DNA from: Dehalococcoidia bacterium | Lineage (GTDB): Bacteria > Chloroflexota > Dehalococcoidia > Plut-88900 | Reading direction: 5' to 3' | Length of the DNA stretch: 64,000 nucleotides | Assembly: GCA_965197585.1 (NCBI GenBank) | Contig: OZ240215.1 | Location: 1,376,642-1,440,641 of the forward strand | In this document: one piece after another, positions 3,680 through 63,439 of the stretch | How the letters are laid out: the number at the start of each line of letters is the position of its first letter | Numbering within the stretch: the first letter of the stretch is position 1 | Translations under genes and position numbers: made by a program | The notes under the pieces: model-generated | Databases searched by the model: none | Seen by the model: only the letters and a program-made list of their open reading frames with translations | Told to the model about the DNA's origin: nothing

Positions 3680-4213
3680 ATGACCACATTTGTACCTAAA
3701 AAGAGCGTGCTGGGGGTCTTCCCCAACGCCGACACCGCGGCGGATGCCGTGGAGGGACTCCAGTCGAATAAGTTCGACGACAAGGAGTTCGAGATAATGT
3801 CGGGCACTCCGTATCCCGAGGGAGCCTTCGGTGAGAAGAAGTCATCCCACCGGCTGTACGTCTTCCCCTTCATTGGGGCAGCCATAGGCTTTACGGTGGC
3901 CATACTGCTTACCACCGCCACGCAGGTCTCCTACCCTCTCGTCACAGGTGGTAAGCCGATCCTATCCATTCCTCCCATGGCAATCATCACCTACGAAGGG
4001 ACGATGCTCGGGGCCATAATCTTCACGGTTCTCGGCATCGTCTTCGAGTCCCGCCTGCCGAGAAGTAAGCTGGGCCTCTATGACGAGCGCATTATGGAAG
4101 GCTACGTCGGAGTCCTGGTAACCGCCCCTGAGGACCGGATCCCCGTGGCGCAGAACGTGCTGAAGGAGGCAGGCGCAGAAACCATCAAGGAAGGCGAACC
4201 CGTCGGGGTCTGA
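3680..4213 (+). CDS. ACIII subunit ActD-like (DUF3341)
   Basis: 177 aa with a soluble N-terminal part followed by two TM helices. It sits directly after the NrfD-like subunits, as ActD does in ACIII operons. Confidence 0.7.
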   Translation: MTTFVPKKSVLGVFPNADTAADAVEGLQSNKFDDKEFEIMSGTPYPEGAFGEKKSSHRLYVFPFIGAAIGFTVAILLTTATQVSYPLVTGGKPILSIPPMAIITYEGTMLGAIIFTVLGIVFESRLPRSKLGLYDERIMEGYVGVLVTAPEDRIPVAQNVLKEAGAETIKEGEPVGV

Positions 4214-4234
4214 CGGAGGGTAACCCGGAGCGTT

Positions 4235-5275
4235 ATGGAGTTTCACATCGGTATGGGACGTAGCGAAACGATCCACGAGATCGGCCCATTGGCGCGCATC
4301 GCCGAGGACGCTGGATTCACTCATATCAACTTCCCAGATCAGCCACCACTCAACCGGGATGTGTTTCTGAACATGGCTATGGCAGCCCAAAGCACTACCA
4401 GGATATCGATGGGGCCAGGCATAGTTACCCCATATACCTACCATCCAGCTGTGATCGCCAATGCCACCGCAACCGTAGACGAGTTGTCGGGGGGGCGGGC
4501 GTTTGTCGGCATAGGTGCCGGGGGCAGCGCAGTAATGAGCATGGGCCTCAAACCGCGTCCCATGCGTGAGCTGCGCGAGGCAGCCCAGTTCATCAAGAAT
4601 TTCATGTCCGGCAGGGAAGCAGAATTCAAAGGCGGAAAGACTCACTCAGAATGGATCAAGCGTCCAGTGCCAATGTACATCGCGATTGACGGACCCCGAG
4701 GCCACGAGGTCGCCGGTGAATTTGCCGATGGCGTATACGTCCAAAGCGTTCACCCCGACGTGTTCGAATGGAGAAAATCCCTGATTGAGCGGTCAGCTGT
4801 AAAGGCAGGCCGGGACCCGTCGAAAATCAAGATCATCCCCTCGACCATCGTCTACATCACAGACGATCGCGAAAGTGCCCGCCGGGAGGTAGCCCCACAA
4901 GTTGCTTCCAAGCTCAGACGGGCCTTCCCCATGTGGAGAAGCAGTCACCCGGACATGGTGGCCCTGCGGGAGCAGCTTGAAAAAAACGACCCCGGGCTTG
5001 TAGATGAGATAATCCAGGTCGGGGACCGTATTAACGAAGTTTTTGACGAGCACCAGCACGAGAAAATCGACTCACCCCAGGCCGAGCCGGTGACTTGGAG
5101 GCTGATTGACTACTATATGCTCGTCGGGAGTGAGGAAGAGGTCTGTGAGCGGATACAAGACCTTAGGAATCGGGGGCTGGCCGGACTAATGCCCCTTATT
5201 TACACCATACAGGACAAGCAAACGATGATGCAGGAGATCGGCGCCCGGATCATCTCCCGATTCGGAAACAACTAA
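4235..5275 (+). CDS. LLM-class (luciferase-like) flavin/F420-dependent oxidoreductase
   Basis: 346-aa TIM-barrel-like sequence (GFTHINFPDQ..., ELSGGRAFVGIGAGGS) typical of the luciferase-like monooxygenase family. Confidence 0.8.
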   Translation: MEFHIGMGRSETIHEIGPLARIAEDAGFTHINFPDQPPLNRDVFLNMAMAAQSTTRISMGPGIVTPYTYHPAVIANATATVDELSGGRAFVGIGAGGSAVMSMGLKPRPMRELREAAQFIKNFMSGREAEFKGGKTHSEWIKRPVPMYIAIDGPRGHEVAGEFADGVYVQSVHPDVFEWRKSLIERSAVKAGRDPSKIKIIPSTIVYITDDRESARREVAPQVASKLRRAFPMWRSSHPDMVALREQLEKNDPGLVDEIIQVGDRINEVFDEHQHEKIDSPQAEPVTWRLIDYYMLVGSEEEVCERIQDLRNRGLAGLMPLIYTIQDKQTMMQEIGARIISRFGNN

Positions 5276-5278
5276 GCC

Positions 5279-5851
5279 ATGAGAGCGTTAGCCGCAATAA
5301 GAAAATCAGGCTTCAAGTGGACCCTACTATTGGTCGTACTCGGGACCGTTGCCCTCGCCTGCTCTACGGGCAGCTATCCCGTGGACATTTTCACGGAGAT
5401 GCACTACCAGCAGTCCTACCGTTCCCAGGAACCTCCGCGGCTCTTGACTGCCGAGGGCGCAGTCCCCTTTACCGATGAGTCTATGGCCCTTCGCCCCGCC
5501 GAGCCTGCATCCCAAGGTGAAGCCCTGATTCCAAACCCGATTGAAGCGTCTGCTGATAACCTGGTCCGCGCCCAGCAGGTATTTACCCGCAACTGCTCCA
5601 TGTGCCACGGGGTCTCCGGCGCAAGCGACAGTTTCATATCCGTGACCTTCACCTCCATGGGCATCAAGCCGCCCGCCAACTTCGCAGAGGCCGGTTCCAT
5701 AACGCCCGATGGCAGCTCCGACGGTCTGGCTTTCTGGATCATGACGGACGGGCTCGGAAACATGCCTTCCTTCCGTCACCTCCTCTCCTATGAAGACCGG
5801 TGGGGAGTCATTCACTACCTGCGTGTCCTCTCCCAACAGGCCGGACAGTAG
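5279..5851 (+). CDS. Monoheme c-type cytochrome lipoprotein (ActE-like)
   Basis: Signal peptide with a lipobox (GTVALAC), a single CSMCH heme motif, and a distal Met region GLGNMPSF. Confidence 0.85.
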   Translation: MRALAAIRKSGFKWTLLLVVLGTVALACSTGSYPVDIFTEMHYQQSYRSQEPPRLLTAEGAVPFTDESMALRPAEPASQGEALIPNPIEASADNLVRAQQVFTRNCSMCHGVSGASDSFISVTFTSMGIKPPANFAEAGSITPDGSSDGLAFWIMTDGLGNMPSFRHLLSYEDRWGVIHYLRVLSQQAGQ

Positions 5852-27595: not shown

Positions 27596-30268
27596 CTAAC
27601 CGACGACAGCGGCCAGCTTAGCCACCCTGGCCCGAGCCCCGCTCCGGGGCACGACCGCCGACGGGGACCGGTTGAGGCTCTGCACCAAGGTGTCGGTGTG
27701 GGGGATTGAGAGATGCATGAAGCCGGCGGGGACGTACTCGCACACCTGGGCCACCGCCTCCGAGGCGCCGGTCTGAGTGATGACCTCAATCTCGTCCCCG
27801 CTATTTATGCCGTTTGACGCGGCATCCTCCGTGTTAATCATGGCCCTGGTTCGGCCATCAAGCTCCACAACTCCCTTGATTTCCCGTAGCGTGCCGCTCA
27901 AAACGAAAATTGGGTAGTCGGGGTTCGCGGCCACTGTGTAAGGTCCAGTCTCGAAGGCCGACAGCAAGCCCTTGCCCCTTGCAATTCCGTCTGAGTGCAG
28001 TACCGGGGTGCCGGGGTGCGAGGCGTCGGGGCACGGCCATTGGAGCCCGACCACGCCCAGTCGGTCGTAGCTGATTCCGCCGTAGGCCGGGACCATGGAG
28101 CTTATCTCTTCCATCACCTTTGCAGGGCTTTCGTGATCGAACCCCGAGGCGCCCATCCTCGCCGCCAGAGCGCTCACCACCCCCGACACCGTCATCGAAT
28201 CCCCAATGCGCTCCACAACTCTGTTAATTCTCTGCACGCGGCGTTCTGCGTTGGTAAATGTTCCGTCCTTCTCTGCGAAGCTAGCCGCGGGGAGCACCAC
28301 ATCAGCCGCCCTCGCAACGTTGGAGAAGAACAGATCGTGGACTACCAGGAAATCGAGGGAAGACAGGGCCTCGGCGTCCAGGTCGGGCGCCTCTCTCTGG
28401 CTGTCGAGAGAAACGAACAGCGCCCGCAATCCATTTTCGCCGCCACCCTGCACCATCTGCCCATAGCTGAGCCCTGCTCCCGAGGGAGCGTCGGAGCCGT
28501 CGACCAGGGACACGTGGCCCGGAAGCATTGAAGGTGCGCAACCCATGTCGGTGGTGCCTTGGCTGTTCGCATCCGACCTCAGCGGGTTCACCCCCGCCGA
28601 CGCCTTGCCAACGTTGCCCGTAATCAACCCCAAGTTTGCCGCGGCCCGAGCAATAGCAGCACCAGGCTCCACGGACCGCGATGTGCTGAAGAACAACGCC
28701 GCCGGCTTCTGACTAGCGTAAGCCCGTGCAGCTTCAATCAGCAGACCCTGATCGACTCCCGTGAGGTCGGACAGACCTTCAAGGGTCAAGTCTGCCAGCG
28801 AGCCGGTCAGCGCATCCAGACCTTCGCATTGACCATCGATGAATTCCTGGTCCTGTAGCCCCTCATCCAATATAACCTTGGCGAGTGCGGCCAGTACGGC
28901 CGCGCCGGTCCCGGGCAGGTGGCGCAGCCAGATCGTGGCCTCCAGGGCCAGTTCAGTCTCCACCGGATCGATGACTATGAGAGTCGCGCCCCGGTCGGCG
29001 GCCTCCTTGACCTGAATGGCGGCCACAGGGTGGTCCCAGGTCAGGTCGCTGCCATAGACCAGGATGCAGCGAGCATCCCTCATCTCGCGGAAGCCGTTGG
29101 TCATTGCGCCCACGCCAAGGGTCTCTCCCAGGGCCGAGACACTCTCTGCATCGCACGTAGCGTCCGTGTGGTCGATATTGTTCGAACCCATCACCGACCG
29201 CGTGAACTTCTGGAGAAGGTAGTTCTCTTCGTTGGTGGCCCGCGGTGAAGCCAGAGCGCCGAAGGCCGACCCCTTGTGCTCGGCGAGTTTTCCGGAGATC
29301 AGGTCCAATGCCTCATCCCACGTGGCCTCGACAAGCTCTCCGTCTTTCTTGATATAGGGCGTCGAGATCCGGTCCTTGTTGTGGACGAACTTGTAGCCGA
29401 ACTTGCCTTTGCCGCAGGCGTTGCCCTGGTTCGCGGGGCCGCTCAGGTCAGGTATGGCGCGTATAACCCGGCCCTTCTTTACCAGCAGTTCAAGCTGGCA
29501 TCCCACGCTGCAGTTGGAGCAGATTGTGGTAACCGATTTCTCCGGCGCGCCCGACCATTTGTGGTCTTTCTCGGTGATTGCCCCGACCGGGCAGACGTCG
29601 ACGCAAGCCCCGCAGAAGGTGCACCCGGAGTCGGACAGGGAGCCGCCAAGGGACGTGCCTATAAGGGTCCGGTCGCCGCGTTCGATGAAGGTGATGGCAT
29701 TGACGCCCTCTATCTCGTTGCAGGCCCTCACGCAGCGCCCACAGACGATGCACAGGTTCATGTCGTGGTCTATGAAGGGGTTGGATGTGTTCAGGGGCTC
29801 GTGCCGGTACTCGTAGGGCAGGTCCGAGTCCTTCATCTGAAGATGGTAGACCACGTCCTGCAACTCACACCGTTCGTTCTGCGGGCATAGCACGCACCGG
29901 TCGACAACGTTGGCATGGCGCAGGCAGATGTCCTGCGGACCACAGTGGTCGATACGCGGGCAGGTCAGGCAACCGTGGGGATGCTCCGAGAGGATCAGGT
30001 CCATGATATTGTGCCGGATCCCGTCAATGGCCTTCCCCTTCGTCGTCACCACCATCCCGTCCATTGCGCCCGTGGTACACGACGCCGGAGTCCCGCGCAT
30101 CCTCTCGACCTGCACCACGCACATCCGGCACGCGCCGAACGCCTTCAGGGTCGGGTGCCAGCAGAGGTAGGGAATGTAGATTCCCGCCTCCCGAGCGGCC
30201 TCGATGATCGTCTGGCCCTTTCTGGCCTTGATCTCCCGTCCGTCTACGGTAAGCGTTATCTCGTCCAC
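27596..30268 (-). CDS. NAD-dependent formate dehydrogenase alpha subunit (FdsA/NuoG-like; 2Fe-2S, 4Fe-4S and molybdopterin domains; Cys-type)
   Basis: N-terminal 2Fe-2S/4Fe-4S Cys clusters (CRMCVV, CLTCP, CIVCGRCVRAC, CTFCGACVDVCP), then a molybdopterin domain (SNCSVGCQ..., NACGKGKF). The GTG at 30268 lies just after the upstream stop. The maximal ORF reaches 30322 but would overlap the upstream gene by 43 nt. Confidence 0.9.
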   Translation of the reverse strand: MDEITLTVDGREIKARKGQTIIEAAREAGIYIPYLCWHPTLKAFGACRMCVVQVERMRGTPASCTTGAMDGMVVTTKGKAIDGIRHNIMDLILSEHPHGCLTCPRIDHCGPQDICLRHANVVDRCVLCPQNERCELQDVVYHLQMKDSDLPYEYRHEPLNTSNPFIDHDMNLCIVCGRCVRACNEIEGVNAITFIERGDRTLIGTSLGGSLSDSGCTFCGACVDVCPVGAITEKDHKWSGAPEKSVTTICSNCSVGCQLELLVKKGRVIRAIPDLSGPANQGNACGKGKFGYKFVHNKDRISTPYIKKDGELVEATWDEALDLISGKLAEHKGSAFGALASPRATNEENYLLQKFTRSVMGSNNIDHTDATCDAESVSALGETLGVGAMTNGFREMRDARCILVYGSDLTWDHPVAAIQVKEAADRGATLIVIDPVETELALEATIWLRHLPGTGAAVLAALAKVILDEGLQDQEFIDGQCEGLDALTGSLADLTLEGLSDLTGVDQGLLIEAARAYASQKPAALFFSTSRSVEPGAAIARAAANLGLITGNVGKASAGVNPLRSDANSQGTTDMGCAPSMLPGHVSLVDGSDAPSGAGLSYGQMVQGGGENGLRALFVSLDSQREAPDLDAEALSSLDFLVVHDLFFSNVARAADVVLPAASFAEKDGTFTNAERRVQRINRVVERIGDSMTVSGVVSALAARMGASGFDHESPAKVMEEISSMVPAYGGISYDRLGVVGLQWPCPDASHPGTPVLHSDGIARGKGLLSAFETGPYTVAANPDYPIFVLSGTLREIKGVVELDGRTRAMINTEDAASNGINSGDEIEVITQTGASEAVAQVCEYVPAGFMHLSIPHTDTLVQSLNRSPSAVVPRSGARARVAKLAAVVG

Positions 30269-30279
30269 TACTGTTACCT

Positions 30280-31974
30280 CTAACCGGGTGTGCTCAGGGC
30301 CGAGCATCGGCCCGCGGGACACACCTTATGGATAATATGAGCTTCCAGCTCGCTGGCGAAATACTTCACCGCCGACTTTATCGGGTTCACCGAAAGCTGA
30401 CCGTGGCCGCAGAGGGAGGTGAGCAGGGTGTCGCCCATCGCGAGCATCTTGTCTACGTCGCCCTCCTTCGCCCTGCCCTCCGTCATGGTCTGGAACATAT
30501 CGAGAATGTGCTTGGTGCCGAGCCGGCAAGGGAAACACTTGCCGCACGACTCCTCGTTGTTGAAGTCGGCCAGTATCGAGGCCATCTCCACGGGGCACGA
30601 GCTTTCGTCGCCGACAATTATTCCACCCGACCCCAGGATCGCCCCTCTTTTCGCCATCTCGTCAAAGTCCAGGGTCACGTCGATCTCCGATGGCCCGAGG
30701 AATCCGCCTAAGGGCCCGCCGGTCTGGAGCAGCTTGATCTCCTTACCCGGGCTCACTCCCCCGGCCACCTCCTCGATGACCTGACGCAAAGTGAGGCCAA
30801 AAGGCACCTCTGCCATCTGGGGCCTGGCGACGTTGCCGGTGAGGCAAACTATGGCCGTACCCTTGCTTCTCTCCGTCCCGATTCCCGCGAACCACTCGCC
30901 GCCCCGCCTCAGTATCTCCGGGACGTAGGCGTATGTCTTCACGTTGTTTATGTTGCTCGGCTTGCCCCACAGCCCCACCTGCGCCGGGAAGGGAGGCCTG
31001 GACCGCGGCATCGCCCGCTTCCCTTCGATGGATTCCATCAATGCGGTCTCTTCCCCCGCCACGTAGGACTCGCCGGTCAGGGAAACAGCTATGTCAAAGT
31101 CGAAGCCGCTGCCCAGGATGTTCTTTCCAAGCAGCCCGTCCCTGTAGGCCTGGTCAATCGCCGTCTGCGTGGTGCGGATAACGTCTCGGTGCACACACCG
31201 GATGAAGACGTATCCCTTGCTGGCGGCGGTCGCATAGCCTGCGATGGTCATCCCTTCCAGTACGGTGTGAGGATCGCTTTCAAGGAGGCCCTTGTCGTTG
31301 TAGGCGCCCGGGTCTCCTTCCTCGGCGTTGCAGAGGATGTACTTGGTCGGGCCCGGGGCCCCGGCCAGGAACCGCCATTTCATCGCCGCCGGGAACGCTG
31401 CCCCACCCCGCCCCCTAAGCCCCGACTTCAACACATCCTCAATCGCTTCCGCGGGAGCCATATCCGAGAGGCAACGGTCGAGTCCGGAATAGCCACCGTT
31501 GGCTATGTACTGGTCGATTTCCGATGGATCGATGGTGCCGCAATTCCGCATGGCAACCCGGACCTGGGGTTTAAGGTCGGGGAGGTCGAAGAGCTTGGGG
31601 AGACCGTCTACCGACTCATCGCCCCGGATGGCGAGAGCGAGGTCGGGCCTCGGGTTTCCACCGACCAGATAGTCTTTGACCAGGGTTTCAGCAATCTCTG
31701 GGGTAACGTTCGCGTAGGTAATACGGGGTCTGCCGGGCGCGATTATGTCGACTAACACCTCTGCATAGCAGAGGCCGATGCAGCCGACCTGGTGTACCTG
31801 CGCCTCGATGCCGCTCTCGGCGATGGCCTTTTCGAAAGCCACCACCACCTGCAGGCCACCCGCCGCCCGTCCACAGGTCGCCGTCCCGACGAATATCCGG
31901 GCCGGGCTACCCTTCATAAGGGAGTCCCAGCTGGCGTCAGCGCGCTGCTTAAGCTGTATGTAGGCTTCCGTCAT
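30280..31974 (-). CDS. NADH-binding FMN/Fe-S subunit (NuoF/FdsB/HoxF-like)
   Basis: SGLRGRGGAAFP (FMN/NADH site), ESCGKCFPCRLG (4Fe-4S), and an N-terminal thioredoxin-like extension. Confidence 0.9.
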   Translation of the reverse strand: MTEAYIQLKQRADASWDSLMKGSPARIFVGTATCGRAAGGLQVVVAFEKAIAESGIEAQVHQVGCIGLCYAEVLVDIIAPGRPRITYANVTPEIAETLVKDYLVGGNPRPDLALAIRGDESVDGLPKLFDLPDLKPQVRVAMRNCGTIDPSEIDQYIANGGYSGLDRCLSDMAPAEAIEDVLKSGLRGRGGAAFPAAMKWRFLAGAPGPTKYILCNAEEGDPGAYNDKGLLESDPHTVLEGMTIAGYATAASKGYVFIRCVHRDVIRTTQTAIDQAYRDGLLGKNILGSGFDFDIAVSLTGESYVAGEETALMESIEGKRAMPRSRPPFPAQVGLWGKPSNINNVKTYAYVPEILRRGGEWFAGIGTERSKGTAIVCLTGNVARPQMAEVPFGLTLRQVIEEVAGGVSPGKEIKLLQTGGPLGGFLGPSEIDVTLDFDEMAKRGAILGSGGIIVGDESSCPVEMASILADFNNEESCGKCFPCRLGTKHILDMFQTMTEGRAKEGDVDKMLAMGDTLLTSLCGHGQLSVNPIKSAVKYFASELEAHIIHKVCPAGRCSALSTPG

Positions 31975-43160: not shown

Positions 43161-43853
43161 CTACGACGCGGCGAAACGGTCCAGGGCTTGTTTGGCAGCT
43201 CTCCGTTGCGCTACCCGCTTGGATGTCCCCGTGCCCCTGCCCATTGAACGCCCACCGATGATCACCTTAGTGGCGAAAATCGGGTCACCGGTCTCTGACA
43301 ACTGCTGTGTCGTCTCGTACCGGGGCTGGACTTGAAGCCGCGCCTGGGTGAGCTCCTGAAGCCGCGACTTATAGTCGGTCTCTCCGCCACCGTTGGATAC
43401 GGTTTTAATCCTGGCCTTAAGCGCCTGGACAACGAAGCTGCGAGCCGCATCCAGACCGGCATCCAGCCAGACAGCGCCTATTATCGCTTCCAGGGCCCCC
43501 GCCAGGTTGCGCCGCTTAGTCCTCCCCCCCGACTTCTCCTCCCCCCGCCCCAGCCGCAAATGCTTGCCGAGGTCCATAGCTTCCGCTGCCGAGGCCAGGG
43601 CCTGGGTCGAGACCAACTGGGCGCGCAGGACCGTCATTTCACCTTCGGTGAGTTGCGGCCATTGTCCATACAGATCGTCGGCGATTATGAACCCGAGAAC
43701 GGAATCGCCCAGGAATTCCAAACGTTCGTTGGATTCCTGGGCGGCTTCCGGGTGCTCGTGTAGGTAGGATGAGTGGGTCAGGGCCTGGACCAGCAGGTAC
43801 TCATCGGCCAATTCCACTACTTTGCTTGGTTCGACACCGTTGTTCGGGGACAT
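43161..43853 (-). CDS. rnc: Ribonuclease III
   Basis: Signature ERLEFLGDSVL plus a C-terminal dsRBD (DYKSRLQE...GTSKRVAQRRAA). Confidence 0.93.
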   Translation of the reverse strand: MSPNNGVEPSKVVELADEYLLVQALTHSSYLHEHPEAAQESNERLEFLGDSVLGFIIADDLYGQWPQLTEGEMTVLRAQLVSTQALASAAEAMDLGKHLRLGRGEEKSGGRTKRRNLAGALEAIIGAVWLDAGLDAARSFVVQALKARIKTVSNGGGETDYKSRLQELTQARLQVQPRYETTQQLSETGDPIFATKVIIGGRSMGRGTGTSKRVAQRRAAKQALDRFAAS

Positions 43854-43870: not shown

Positions 43871-44491
43871 TTAGTCCCCGGGAGGGGTTGGACGCTTGAT
43901 CTCCTGGAGGTTCGGCACGCCGTTGACAACGCCGAGAACGCTTTCAAACACCTCTCGGGCCTGCTCAGCCGGCGGTGGAGGCATCATCTTGAGGAAAGCC
44001 GAGGCGCCGGTGTCGGTGAACATGGTGGGAACACCGAAGACACCGTAGTTGGCCTTGGCTTCTTCGTAGTCGGAGGCAATGGTCTTCAGGGCCTGGGGGT
44101 CGTTGATGTCCTCGAGGAACTTGTCGATGTCCAGCCCCGCGTCCTTCGCCACGTCCGTCAGAATCTCGAGCTTGTCGATGGCCTTCCGTTGCATGTGACG
44201 GGCATTAAGCAGTCCAACATGGAACTTTTCGAATTTCTCGGCGCCCTGCTTCTTGGCGGCCTCTCCGGCCTTCAGGGCAAGGAGACCTTTGCTGGGGAAG
44301 GACTCATCCTGTTCCCACAACTTCCAGTCGGGGCCTTCCTTCGAGTTAACCTGCTCCAACGGGAAATTCTTCCACGTTATGTTAAGATCGTCTCCGTACG
44401 CCTTCTTTACGTCTTGCAGCCAAACTGCCGCAACCCGAACGTAGGGTCAGAGATAGTCGTAGAACACCGTGAGATTAACTTTTTCAGACAT
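43871..44491 (-). CDS. DsbA/GST-kappa-like thioredoxin-fold protein with in-frame TGA (candidate selenocysteine at residue 15)
   Basis: ATG 44491 lies behind GAAAGGTGGGG. The product reads MSEKVNLTVFYDYL-TGA-PYVRVAAVWL... in frame with the 162-aa ORF (43871-44359), which ends in a DsbA-family C-terminus (GVFGVPTMF). The TGA is at 44447-44449. Confidence 0.6.
44414..44433 (-). promoter_or_regulatory. SECIS-like hairpin downstream of the in-frame TGA
   Basis: mRNA UUGCGGC-AGUUUG-GCUGCAA forms a 7-bp stem that begins 13 nt after UGA. The spacing and the GGUUGC...GCA sequence resemble the E. coli fdhF SECIS as I recall it. Confidence 0.45.
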
Positions 44492-44561
44492 GACGCCCCA
44501 CCTTTCACACTAGAATCAAGACCATTTTAACATCCGGCCACCCTATAATACACCCCAGATC

Positions 44562-51051: not shown

Positions 51052-51322
51052 GATCGTGCACCCCCCGTCGATCAAGTCCCCTTGGCCTGTTGTCCGCCGC
51101 CGGGCTCAGACCAGGCGACCCTACGGCACCCAGAATTGACCGCTTACCGTTGCTTCCTTCCGGACCTGGCGGGGTTCACAGTTTTCTGCCGCGTAGGACC
51201 CAATCTTCAGCGCCCGCCGAACGGGTACAGCGTCCGAAGGTCCAGGACCTCTAGGGGGAATTCAGTCCCGCTTTAGCGGATTGCGGGTTCAGGGCACCGC
51301 TAGCTCCCCACCTAGCACGACC
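51052..51322 (-). ncRNA. ffs: Signal recognition particle RNA, long (Bacillus-type, Alu-domain-containing) form
   Basis: The minus strand reads GGUCGUGCUAGGUGGGGAGCUAGCGGUGCCCUGAACCCGCAAUCCGCU... The domain IV core is CCAGGUCCGGAAGGAAGCAACGG, and the sequence continues ...GAUCGACGGGGGGUGCACGAUC. It is collinear with B. subtilis scRNA (271 nt). The 5' GGUCGUGC pairs with the 3' GCACGAUC. Confidence 0.9.

Positions 51323-63363: not shown

Positions 63364-63439
<76 letters not shown>

Follow-up and report, generated by a model that had tools for sequence, protein, structure and literature searches.

An in-frame TGA in a DsbA-like gene of a Dehalococcoidia bacterium very probably encodes selenocysteine

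We analysed a 64,000-nucleotide stretch of DNA from a Dehalococcoidia bacterium of the phylum Chloroflexota (contig OZ240215.1 of GenBank assembly GCA_965197585.1), referred to here as the window. On its minus strand lies a gene for a DsbA-like protein whose frame is interrupted after 14 codons by a TGA, and a preliminary description had put this gene forward as a candidate selenoprotein. Our analysis gives high confidence that the locus is a real selenoprotein gene, encoding a cytoplasmic protein of 206 residues with a DsbA-type thioredoxin fold and with selenocysteine (Sec) at the TGA.

A conserved reading frame runs through the TGA

The gene and its elements have the following window coordinates:

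43871..44491, minus strand: predicted coding sequence (CDS) of the DsbA-like selenoprotein, 206 codons plus TAA, Sec as codon 15; from translation, Pfam and full-length Cys homologs that align from residue 1
44489..44491, minus strand: ATG start codon; from the sequence, the conserved start distance in homologs and metatranscriptome coverage
44496..44503, minus strand: Shine–Dalgarno-like AGGTGGGG, ending 4 nucleotides (nt) before the ATG; read from the sequence, with a putative function
44447..44449, minus strand: in-frame TGA, read as the Sec codon of residue 15; from the TGA/Cys codon alignment and from DNA and RNA contigs
44438..44449, minus strand: active-site motif U-P-Y-V; from translation, the modelled Cys homolog P0014 and the alignment with Cys24 of DR_2335
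43871..44359, minus strand: truncated open reading frame (ORF) of 162 amino acids (aa), not the real product; mechanical ORF call from TTG 44359

The ATG at 44491–44489 is preceded by GAAAGGTGGGGCGTC and opens a frame that reads MSEKVNLTVFYDYL, reaches the TGA at 44449–44447, continues as PYVRVAAVWL... and stops at the TAA at 43873–43871, giving 206 codons in all; the residues downstream of the TGA are PYVRVAAVWLQDVKK... in translation. The preliminary description held that this ATG opens the same frame through the TGA, and that the ORF track begins the gene internally at 44359. Both statements are borne out by the sequence, the mechanical call being a TTG at 44359 that yields 162 aa.

Relatives also carry GGAGG/GGTGG-like purine-rich stretches upstream of the start, and in 66 of the 74 parsed homologs the start codon lies 13–14 codons ahead of the Sec/Cys codon. 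With the TGA translated as Cys, the product matches the Pfam family DSBA (PF01323) over residues 7–161 with 66.6 bits (cut-off 25.6). Because this match begins at residue 7, the apparent extension upstream of the TGA is the first strand of the DSBA domain. Among 11 close relatives, the 14 codons ahead of the TGA have undergone 39 synonymous and 13 non-synonymous codon changes; in one relative (L005) seven of these codons are changed, all of them synonymously. This pattern of codon change indicates that the stretch ahead of the TGA is coding and under purifying selection.

The TGA is genuine and alternates with cysteine codons

Scanning one genome per GTDB species yielded 80 loci with 43–98% protein identity. 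Of these, 79 carry a Chloroflexota label and include Dehalococcoidia, SAR202, Thermomicrobiales and the cultured Thermalbibacter longus; L075 alone bears the label Proteobacteria. The closest complete relatives of the window are OZ244800.1, with 93.7% nucleotide identity over 6.6 kb, and OY764147.1. The aligned codon is TGA in 60 of the 80 and TGC or TGT, hence Cys, in the other 20, and the flanks on both sides of it are conserved. With the window and one further locus (L081) added, residue 15 is specified by TGA, the putative Sec codon, in 62 and by a Cys codon in 20 of 82 sequences. The TGA had been placed at the catalytic Cys/Ser position of the family, and indeed it aligns with the Cys of full-length homologs that read FYDYxCPYV; as these homologs carry the motif, the internal Met is not where the family begins. 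In a tree of the sequences, TGA forms occupy several deep clades and three of them sit nested among Cys forms, a pattern suggestive of repeated exchange between Sec and Cys in this DsbA-like family.

Independent DNA and RNA assemblies keep the TGA. No alternative base was present at 44447–44449 in Logan contigs of three DNA runs from three studies (depth 45–94), and RNA contigs of four metatranscriptome runs likewise have no variant at this codon. Four sponge metatranscriptome runs, belonging to three studies, gave contigs that span the gene, the TGA and the ATG and end at 44499–44522, before the divergent neighbouring gene; transcription thus crosses both the start codon and the TGA. Since it is conserved in 60 of the 80 species, the TGA is neither an error nor a pseudogenising mutation. 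Reassignment of the codon was considered and ruled out, since TGA terminates 11 of the 33 long ORFs in the window.

Two further observations concern the distribution of the gene. DNA runs X1 and X4 contain a second, related version of it (44399–44449), with ..VFYDYT ahead of the same TGA; those sponge-derived samples thus harbour close relatives side by side. Locus L074 holds a second copy with an in-frame TGA at ~1988–2600, about 1 kb upstream of the main copy.

A SECIS-type hairpin follows the TGA

In bacteria, the selenocysteine insertion sequence (SECIS) is modelled as a hairpin with a loop of 3–9 nt, a stem of 4–16 base pairs (bp) and a G in the first two loop positions, with a distance of 16–37 nt from UGA to loop and an energy no higher than −7.5 kcal/mol (PMC13188914). 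The candidate in the window is:

44414..44433, minus strand: SECIS-type hairpin; 5′ arm 44433–44427, loop AGUUUG 44426–44421, 3′ arm 44420–44414

The hairpin, UUGCGGC-AGUUUG-GCUGCAA, begins thirteen nt past the TGA and has seven pairs, one of them G-U. It had first been pointed out as a 7-bp hairpin at this distance, and the sequence at 44433–44414 agrees, as does RNAfold, whose minimum free energy structure contains it. The 76-nt region has a z-score of −2.2, and 6 of 200 shuffles fold equally well. Taken as a single sequence the hairpin is therefore mildly unusual, and its significance comes from comparison.

We applied the published criteria with a script of our own, not bSECISearch. The loop has 6 nt (AGUUUG) with G then U at positions 2–3, the stem has 7 bp, the loop lies 20 nt from the UGA and ΔG is −8.8 kcal/mol, so that the hairpin agrees with the model on all four criteria. 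Loop, stem and spacing lie within the same limits in 48 of 48 distinct TGA forms, 46 of which share one common register.

The comparison of TGA forms with Cys forms is more telling. Mean stem energy is −8.0 kcal/mol in the TGA forms versus −2.9 in 18 Cys forms, and all four core pairs are formed in 45 of 47 distinct TGA forms versus 3 of the 18 Cys forms (Fisher p = 5e-10). Across the TGA forms 79.9% of cells pair, a value reached by none of 500 shuffles; the corresponding 58.3% in the Cys forms was reached by 205 of 500. Compensatory changes occur in TGA forms at three pairs: 17–36 (AU/UA/CG/GC), 18–35 (UA/CG) and 24–29 (CG/GU). The loop GU is invariant (47/47 distinct TGA forms). At synonymous sites, 46 of these 47 forms end the first Ala codon in A or G, compared with 38% purine-ending codons among the Ala codons of the window, and all 47 have a Leu codon that ends in G; in Cys forms the Ala and Leu third bases and the loop sites vary freely. 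The contrast in pairing between the aligned TGA and Cys groups is clear, and it indicates that the hairpin is selected for only in TGA forms and behaves as a SECIS element.

A resemblance to the SECIS of E. coli fdhF had been suggested, and it stands: GGUUGC is shared at nt 15–20 counted from the U of the UGA. Both elements are stem-loops within the CDS, right after the UGA, with G-U in the apical loop. They differ in that the window stem is longer (7 bp), its loop G-U lies at nt 25–26 rather than 23–24 and, as folded, it has no bulged U. The fdhF segment used as query was 100% identical among the matches listed, and 5413 E. coli records agree with it at 99% identity or better.

The protein has a DsbA-type fold and a single active-site residue

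The AlphaFold model of P0014, a Cys homolog with 50% identity to the window protein, has a predicted local distance difference test (pLDDT) score of 95.6 and places Cys15 between strand 5–11 and helix 16–35, the classical active-site position of the thioredoxin fold. Its best structural match in Foldseek is DR_2335 of Deinococcus radiodurans (PDB 7dk9; template modelling (TM) score 0.85). A phmmer match to DR_2335 (E = 1.3e-12, residues 9–203) aligns the Cys of that protein with U15, and this Cys24 is the residue mutated in its C24S structure (PDB 7dka). DsbA-family structures fill the rest of the Foldseek list, with YjbH, Rv2466c, GST-kappa, HCCA isomerase and FrnE following DR_2335.

The window protein itself has the motif U-P-Y-V, no resolving Cys and not a single cysteine along its translated length; it thus lacks the CxxC/UxxC dithiol pair of the classical DsbA/FrnE oxidoreductases. 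Its N-terminus, MSEKVNLTVFYDY, enters strand 1 at about residue 5 and has no hydrophobic leader, so that, judged directly from the sequence, it has no signal peptide.

The protein belongs with the DR_2335-like, single-Cys DsbA-like proteins. DR_2335 is a full-length homolog in which the Cys of ..FDFLCPYAW.. aligns with U15 and the C-terminal ..I(K/R)RP.. is shared; it carries Cys rather than Sec and is ~27–28% identical to P0014. Reviews portray it as a DsbA-like protein, predicted to be cytoplasmic, that has one conserved Cys and is functionally uncharacterised (PMC8945050, PMC6300522); with neither function nor expression reported (PMC8945050), it offers no mechanism to borrow.

Rv2466c, GST-kappa and HCCA isomerase share with the window protein the DsbA-type fold with a helical insertion (TM 0.59–0.72) and an active residue at the same helix cap; sequence similarity to Rv2466c is marginal, the Pfam model Rv2466c-like scoring 24.5 bits against a cut-off of 27. 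Rv2466c has a CxxC motif, while GST-kappa and HCCA isomerase use Ser. All three work with a low-molecular-weight thiol, the type of partner that a one-residue Sec enzyme would need. Among NCBIfam models, only NF041057 (Rcas_1661 family thioredoxin-like (seleno)lipoprotein) gave any signal, with 24.2 bits over residues 70–156 against a cut-off of 190; no other NCBIfam model matches the window protein.

Variation within the family extends to the active site. The TGA forms L030:3043 and L037:3037 read U-P-Y-C and the Cys representatives P0179 and P0270 read C-P-[FY]-C, so the family holds both one-residue and two-residue active-site motifs. Some representatives, P0185, P0198 and P0215 among them, are 636–1196 aa long and contain 5–11 stretches matching the family profile; in P0185 and P0215, the two submitted to Pfam, the repeats are DSBA/Thioredoxin_4 domains.

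Relation to catalogued DsbA-like selenoproteins

DsbA-like proteins were counted by the preliminary description among the reported bacterial selenoprotein families, and the literature agrees. The family has been catalogued since 2005, with a UxxC motif, in a Sargasso Sea study (PMC1088965); a 2016 survey lists 45 DsbA-like selenoproteins in 41 organisms (PMC5029168); and a 2026 review divides the family into form 1, UxxC, and form 2, DxxUP, the example of the latter being a crotonase family protein (PMC13188914).

With form 1 the window protein shares the PF01323 fold, Sec in place of the first active-site Cys and a bacterial SECIS just downstream, and the U-P-Y-C of L030 and L037 is of the form 1 type. 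However, the window protein and most of its relatives read U-P-[YFW]-V without a resolving Cys, and therefore cannot form the intramolecular selenenyl-sulfide of UxxC proteins. Form 1 is moreover assigned to COG2761 (FrnE-type), whereas the best relative of the window protein is DR_2335, not FrnE. With form 2, compared here by motif string and description only, it shares PF01323, one Sec and the motif itself: the window reads D12-Y13-L14-U15-P16, and D-x-x-U-P is present in every TGA form read. Unlike form 2, the window protein has no crotonase domain detectable with Pfam.

Both the protein family and the decoding mechanism are thus of kinds already known. It is doubtful, though conceivable, that these genes make up a distinct, uncatalogued subfamily of monoselenol DsbA-fold enzymes in which Sec is the majority state (75% of sampled Chloroflexota species) and the thiol partner is perhaps coenzyme A.

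Selenocysteine decoding in Chloroflexota

Sec decoding exists in the phylum. SelD, SelA and SelB are listed for several cultured Chloroflexi, among them Sphaerobacter, Thermomicrobium, Nitrolancetus and Dehalogenimonas (Peng 2016 supplement), and two Dehalococcoidia metagenome-assembled genomes (MAGs) are recorded with 46–49 selenoprotein genes (BSepDB, 2026). A filtered screen for Sec/Cys pairs across our loci returned the DsbA-like family and a single FdhA match with an in-frame TGA, in L032 (~3831–5300). The TGA stands at the canonical place, NQARI-U-HSSTVPGLG, and a BLAST follow-up found it at the matching place in L033 and L063. In all three loci the FdhA gene adjoins a Cys form of the DsbA-like gene; these genomes seem to decode Sec yet keep Cys in the DsbA-like protein.

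The formate dehydrogenase alpha subunit of the window had been taken for a Cys form, and correctly so: the NuoG/FdhA-like ORF at 27596–30322 (minus strand, 908 aa) has Cys where the L032 FdhA has its Sec, in an alignment of 64 residues with 31% identity.

Evidence against selenocysteine and rival explanations

Several results weigh against Sec at this codon. Motif scans of the 64-kb window and of the fetched locus flanks did not find selA, selB or selD, and ARAGORN found no tRNA-Sec in the window or in any locus. A coding-potential scan of TGA-interrupted frames in the window gave no second selenoprotein candidate, only adjacent genes that share a frame. No Rfam SECIS family was found on 44360–44500 in a permissive scan, bacterial SECIS elements being short and diverse. 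Four of the eight pairs are largely dictated by the conserved peptide A-A-V-W-L, so the RNA argument rests on the synonymous sites, the outer pairs and the contrast with Cys forms; in addition, the TGA-form and Cys-form sequences are phylogenetically related, so the pairing counts are not independent events.

Were the TGA a true stop, the locus would yield a shorter protein from an internal codon (TTG 44359, 162 aa) or be a pseudogene. Mechanical ORF calling and the public gene calls fit this, as does the absence of Sec machinery from the window, but a fold that is modelled with high confidence would be left without its first strand, its active-site residue and most of its first helix. The 14 upstream codons are kept in frame under purifying selection behind a conserved start codon, whereas the internal starts differ in position among relatives; nor would a pseudogenising stop persist at one codon in 60 species with the rest of the gene intact. 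We consider a true stop extremely unlikely. A mistake in assembling or sequencing a Cys codon would need only a single base, TGA being one step from TGC or TGT, but the uniform bases at 44447–44449 in three DNA and four RNA runs, together with the same TGA in 61 further independently assembled sequences, reduce its probability practically to nil.

Downstream structure can also stimulate stop-codon read-through. A near-cognate tRNA (Trp or Cys) could in that case read the UGA without any Sec system, the hairpin only slowing termination, and this would suit a genome whose Sec machinery is unconfirmed. Such read-through, if of low efficiency, would be a poor route to a conserved housekeeping protein, and it does not account for a codon that alternates solely with Cys codons, at the catalytic position. 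The hairpin has SelB-type SECIS features (a small apical loop with G-U, 20–21 nt from the UGA, and GGUUGC as in fdhF), related genomes hold the canonical FdhA Sec codons, and the class includes the two selenoprotein-rich MAGs. We therefore judge Sec-free read-through very unlikely.

Database records miss the start of the gene

A protein search showed that the closest relatives (60–97% identity) are all called short, several beginning with M[RGHY]xAAVWL, three residues past the TGA site, whereas more distant relatives (40–50% identity) are full length with FYDYxCPYV. In public assemblies the call is 162 aa here and 107–193 aa in relatives; an exact sequence look-up of the 162-aa product gave no record. 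This truncated ORF starts downstream of strand 1 and the active site and also lacks most of helix 1. Truncated calls bear names such as ‘DsbA family protein, partial', ‘hypothetical protein' and ‘protein-disulfide isomerase-like protein with CxxC motif'; a public name was found in two of three sampled clusters of such calls.

A profile search of 1.84 billion representatives found 146 clusters at E ≤ 1e-30. Among the top 150 representatives, ~37 begin just past the Sec/Cys site, as read from the protein calls, which suggests that more miscalled Sec forms are to be found among them.

Genomic neighbourhood

The gene for RNase III follows the DsbA-like gene on the same strand, 17 nt downstream:

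43161..43853, minus strand: RNase III gene (rnc), context; ORF, with Pfam Ribonuclease_3/dsrm on the identical product

It is directly downstream in 37 of the 80 loci, the pairing being conserved across loci of the Dehalococcoidia/SAR202 type, and the two genes are probably co-transcribed. In 29 of the 80 loci (L013–L076), coaE, encoding dephospho-CoA kinase, lies directly upstream on the same strand, ~100–700 nt away, and it adjoins Sec forms as well as Cys forms. Fusion of coaE to the DsbA-like domain occurs in three divergent representative clusters (P0154, P0157 and P0190) and may hint, weakly, at a link with coenzyme A. The neighbours include no redox partner, only the housekeeping genes rnc and coaE and those for an ABC-F ATPase and the CCA-adding enzyme.

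A scan of the window at Rfam gathering thresholds returned one signal recognition particle (SRP) RNA and one tRNA only:

51054..51320, minus strand: bacterial large SRP RNA (Rfam RF01854, 187 bits)
63364..63439, plus strand: tRNA-Arg(TCT)

Discussion

With Sec as the reading of the TGA, expression of the gene can be pictured as follows. Translation would begin at ATG 44491, and the UGA at codon 15 would not be taken as a stop. The hairpin within the CDS, with G-U in its apical loop, would recruit SelB carrying Sec-tRNA(Sec), as happens at E. coli fdhF; Sec would be inserted, and the ribosome would proceed to the TAA at 43871. The residue would then cap helix 1 at its N-terminus, at the site of the nucleophilic Cys of DsbA, FrnE and Rv2466c and of the Ser of GST-kappa/HCCA isomerase. 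With the motif U-P-Y-V in a protein devoid of cysteine, a one-residue mechanism would apply: the selenolate may react with a disulfide or some other oxidised substrate, and an external thiol would then resolve the selenenyl-sulfide. If coenzyme A were that partner, the family could act as a reductase of CoA mixed disulfides or of CoAlated proteins.

For annotation, the consequence is that existing calls fall 13–50% short, and miss strand 1 and the active site, both for this gene and for at least 60 orthologs from species-representative genomes of Chloroflexota. As there is no NCBIfam model for the family, selenoprotein naming pipelines based on NCBIfam would probably miss its members.

The understanding of Sec decoding itself is unchanged. 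The gene is transcribed in sponge microbiomes and brings one more widespread family into the selenoproteome of marine and sponge-associated Dehalococcoidia/SAR202, for which an abundance of selenoproteins has recently been reported. Sec at this site would also single out the one conserved Cys of the uncharacterised DR_2335 proteins as a redox nucleophile, which would give that family a functional starting point.

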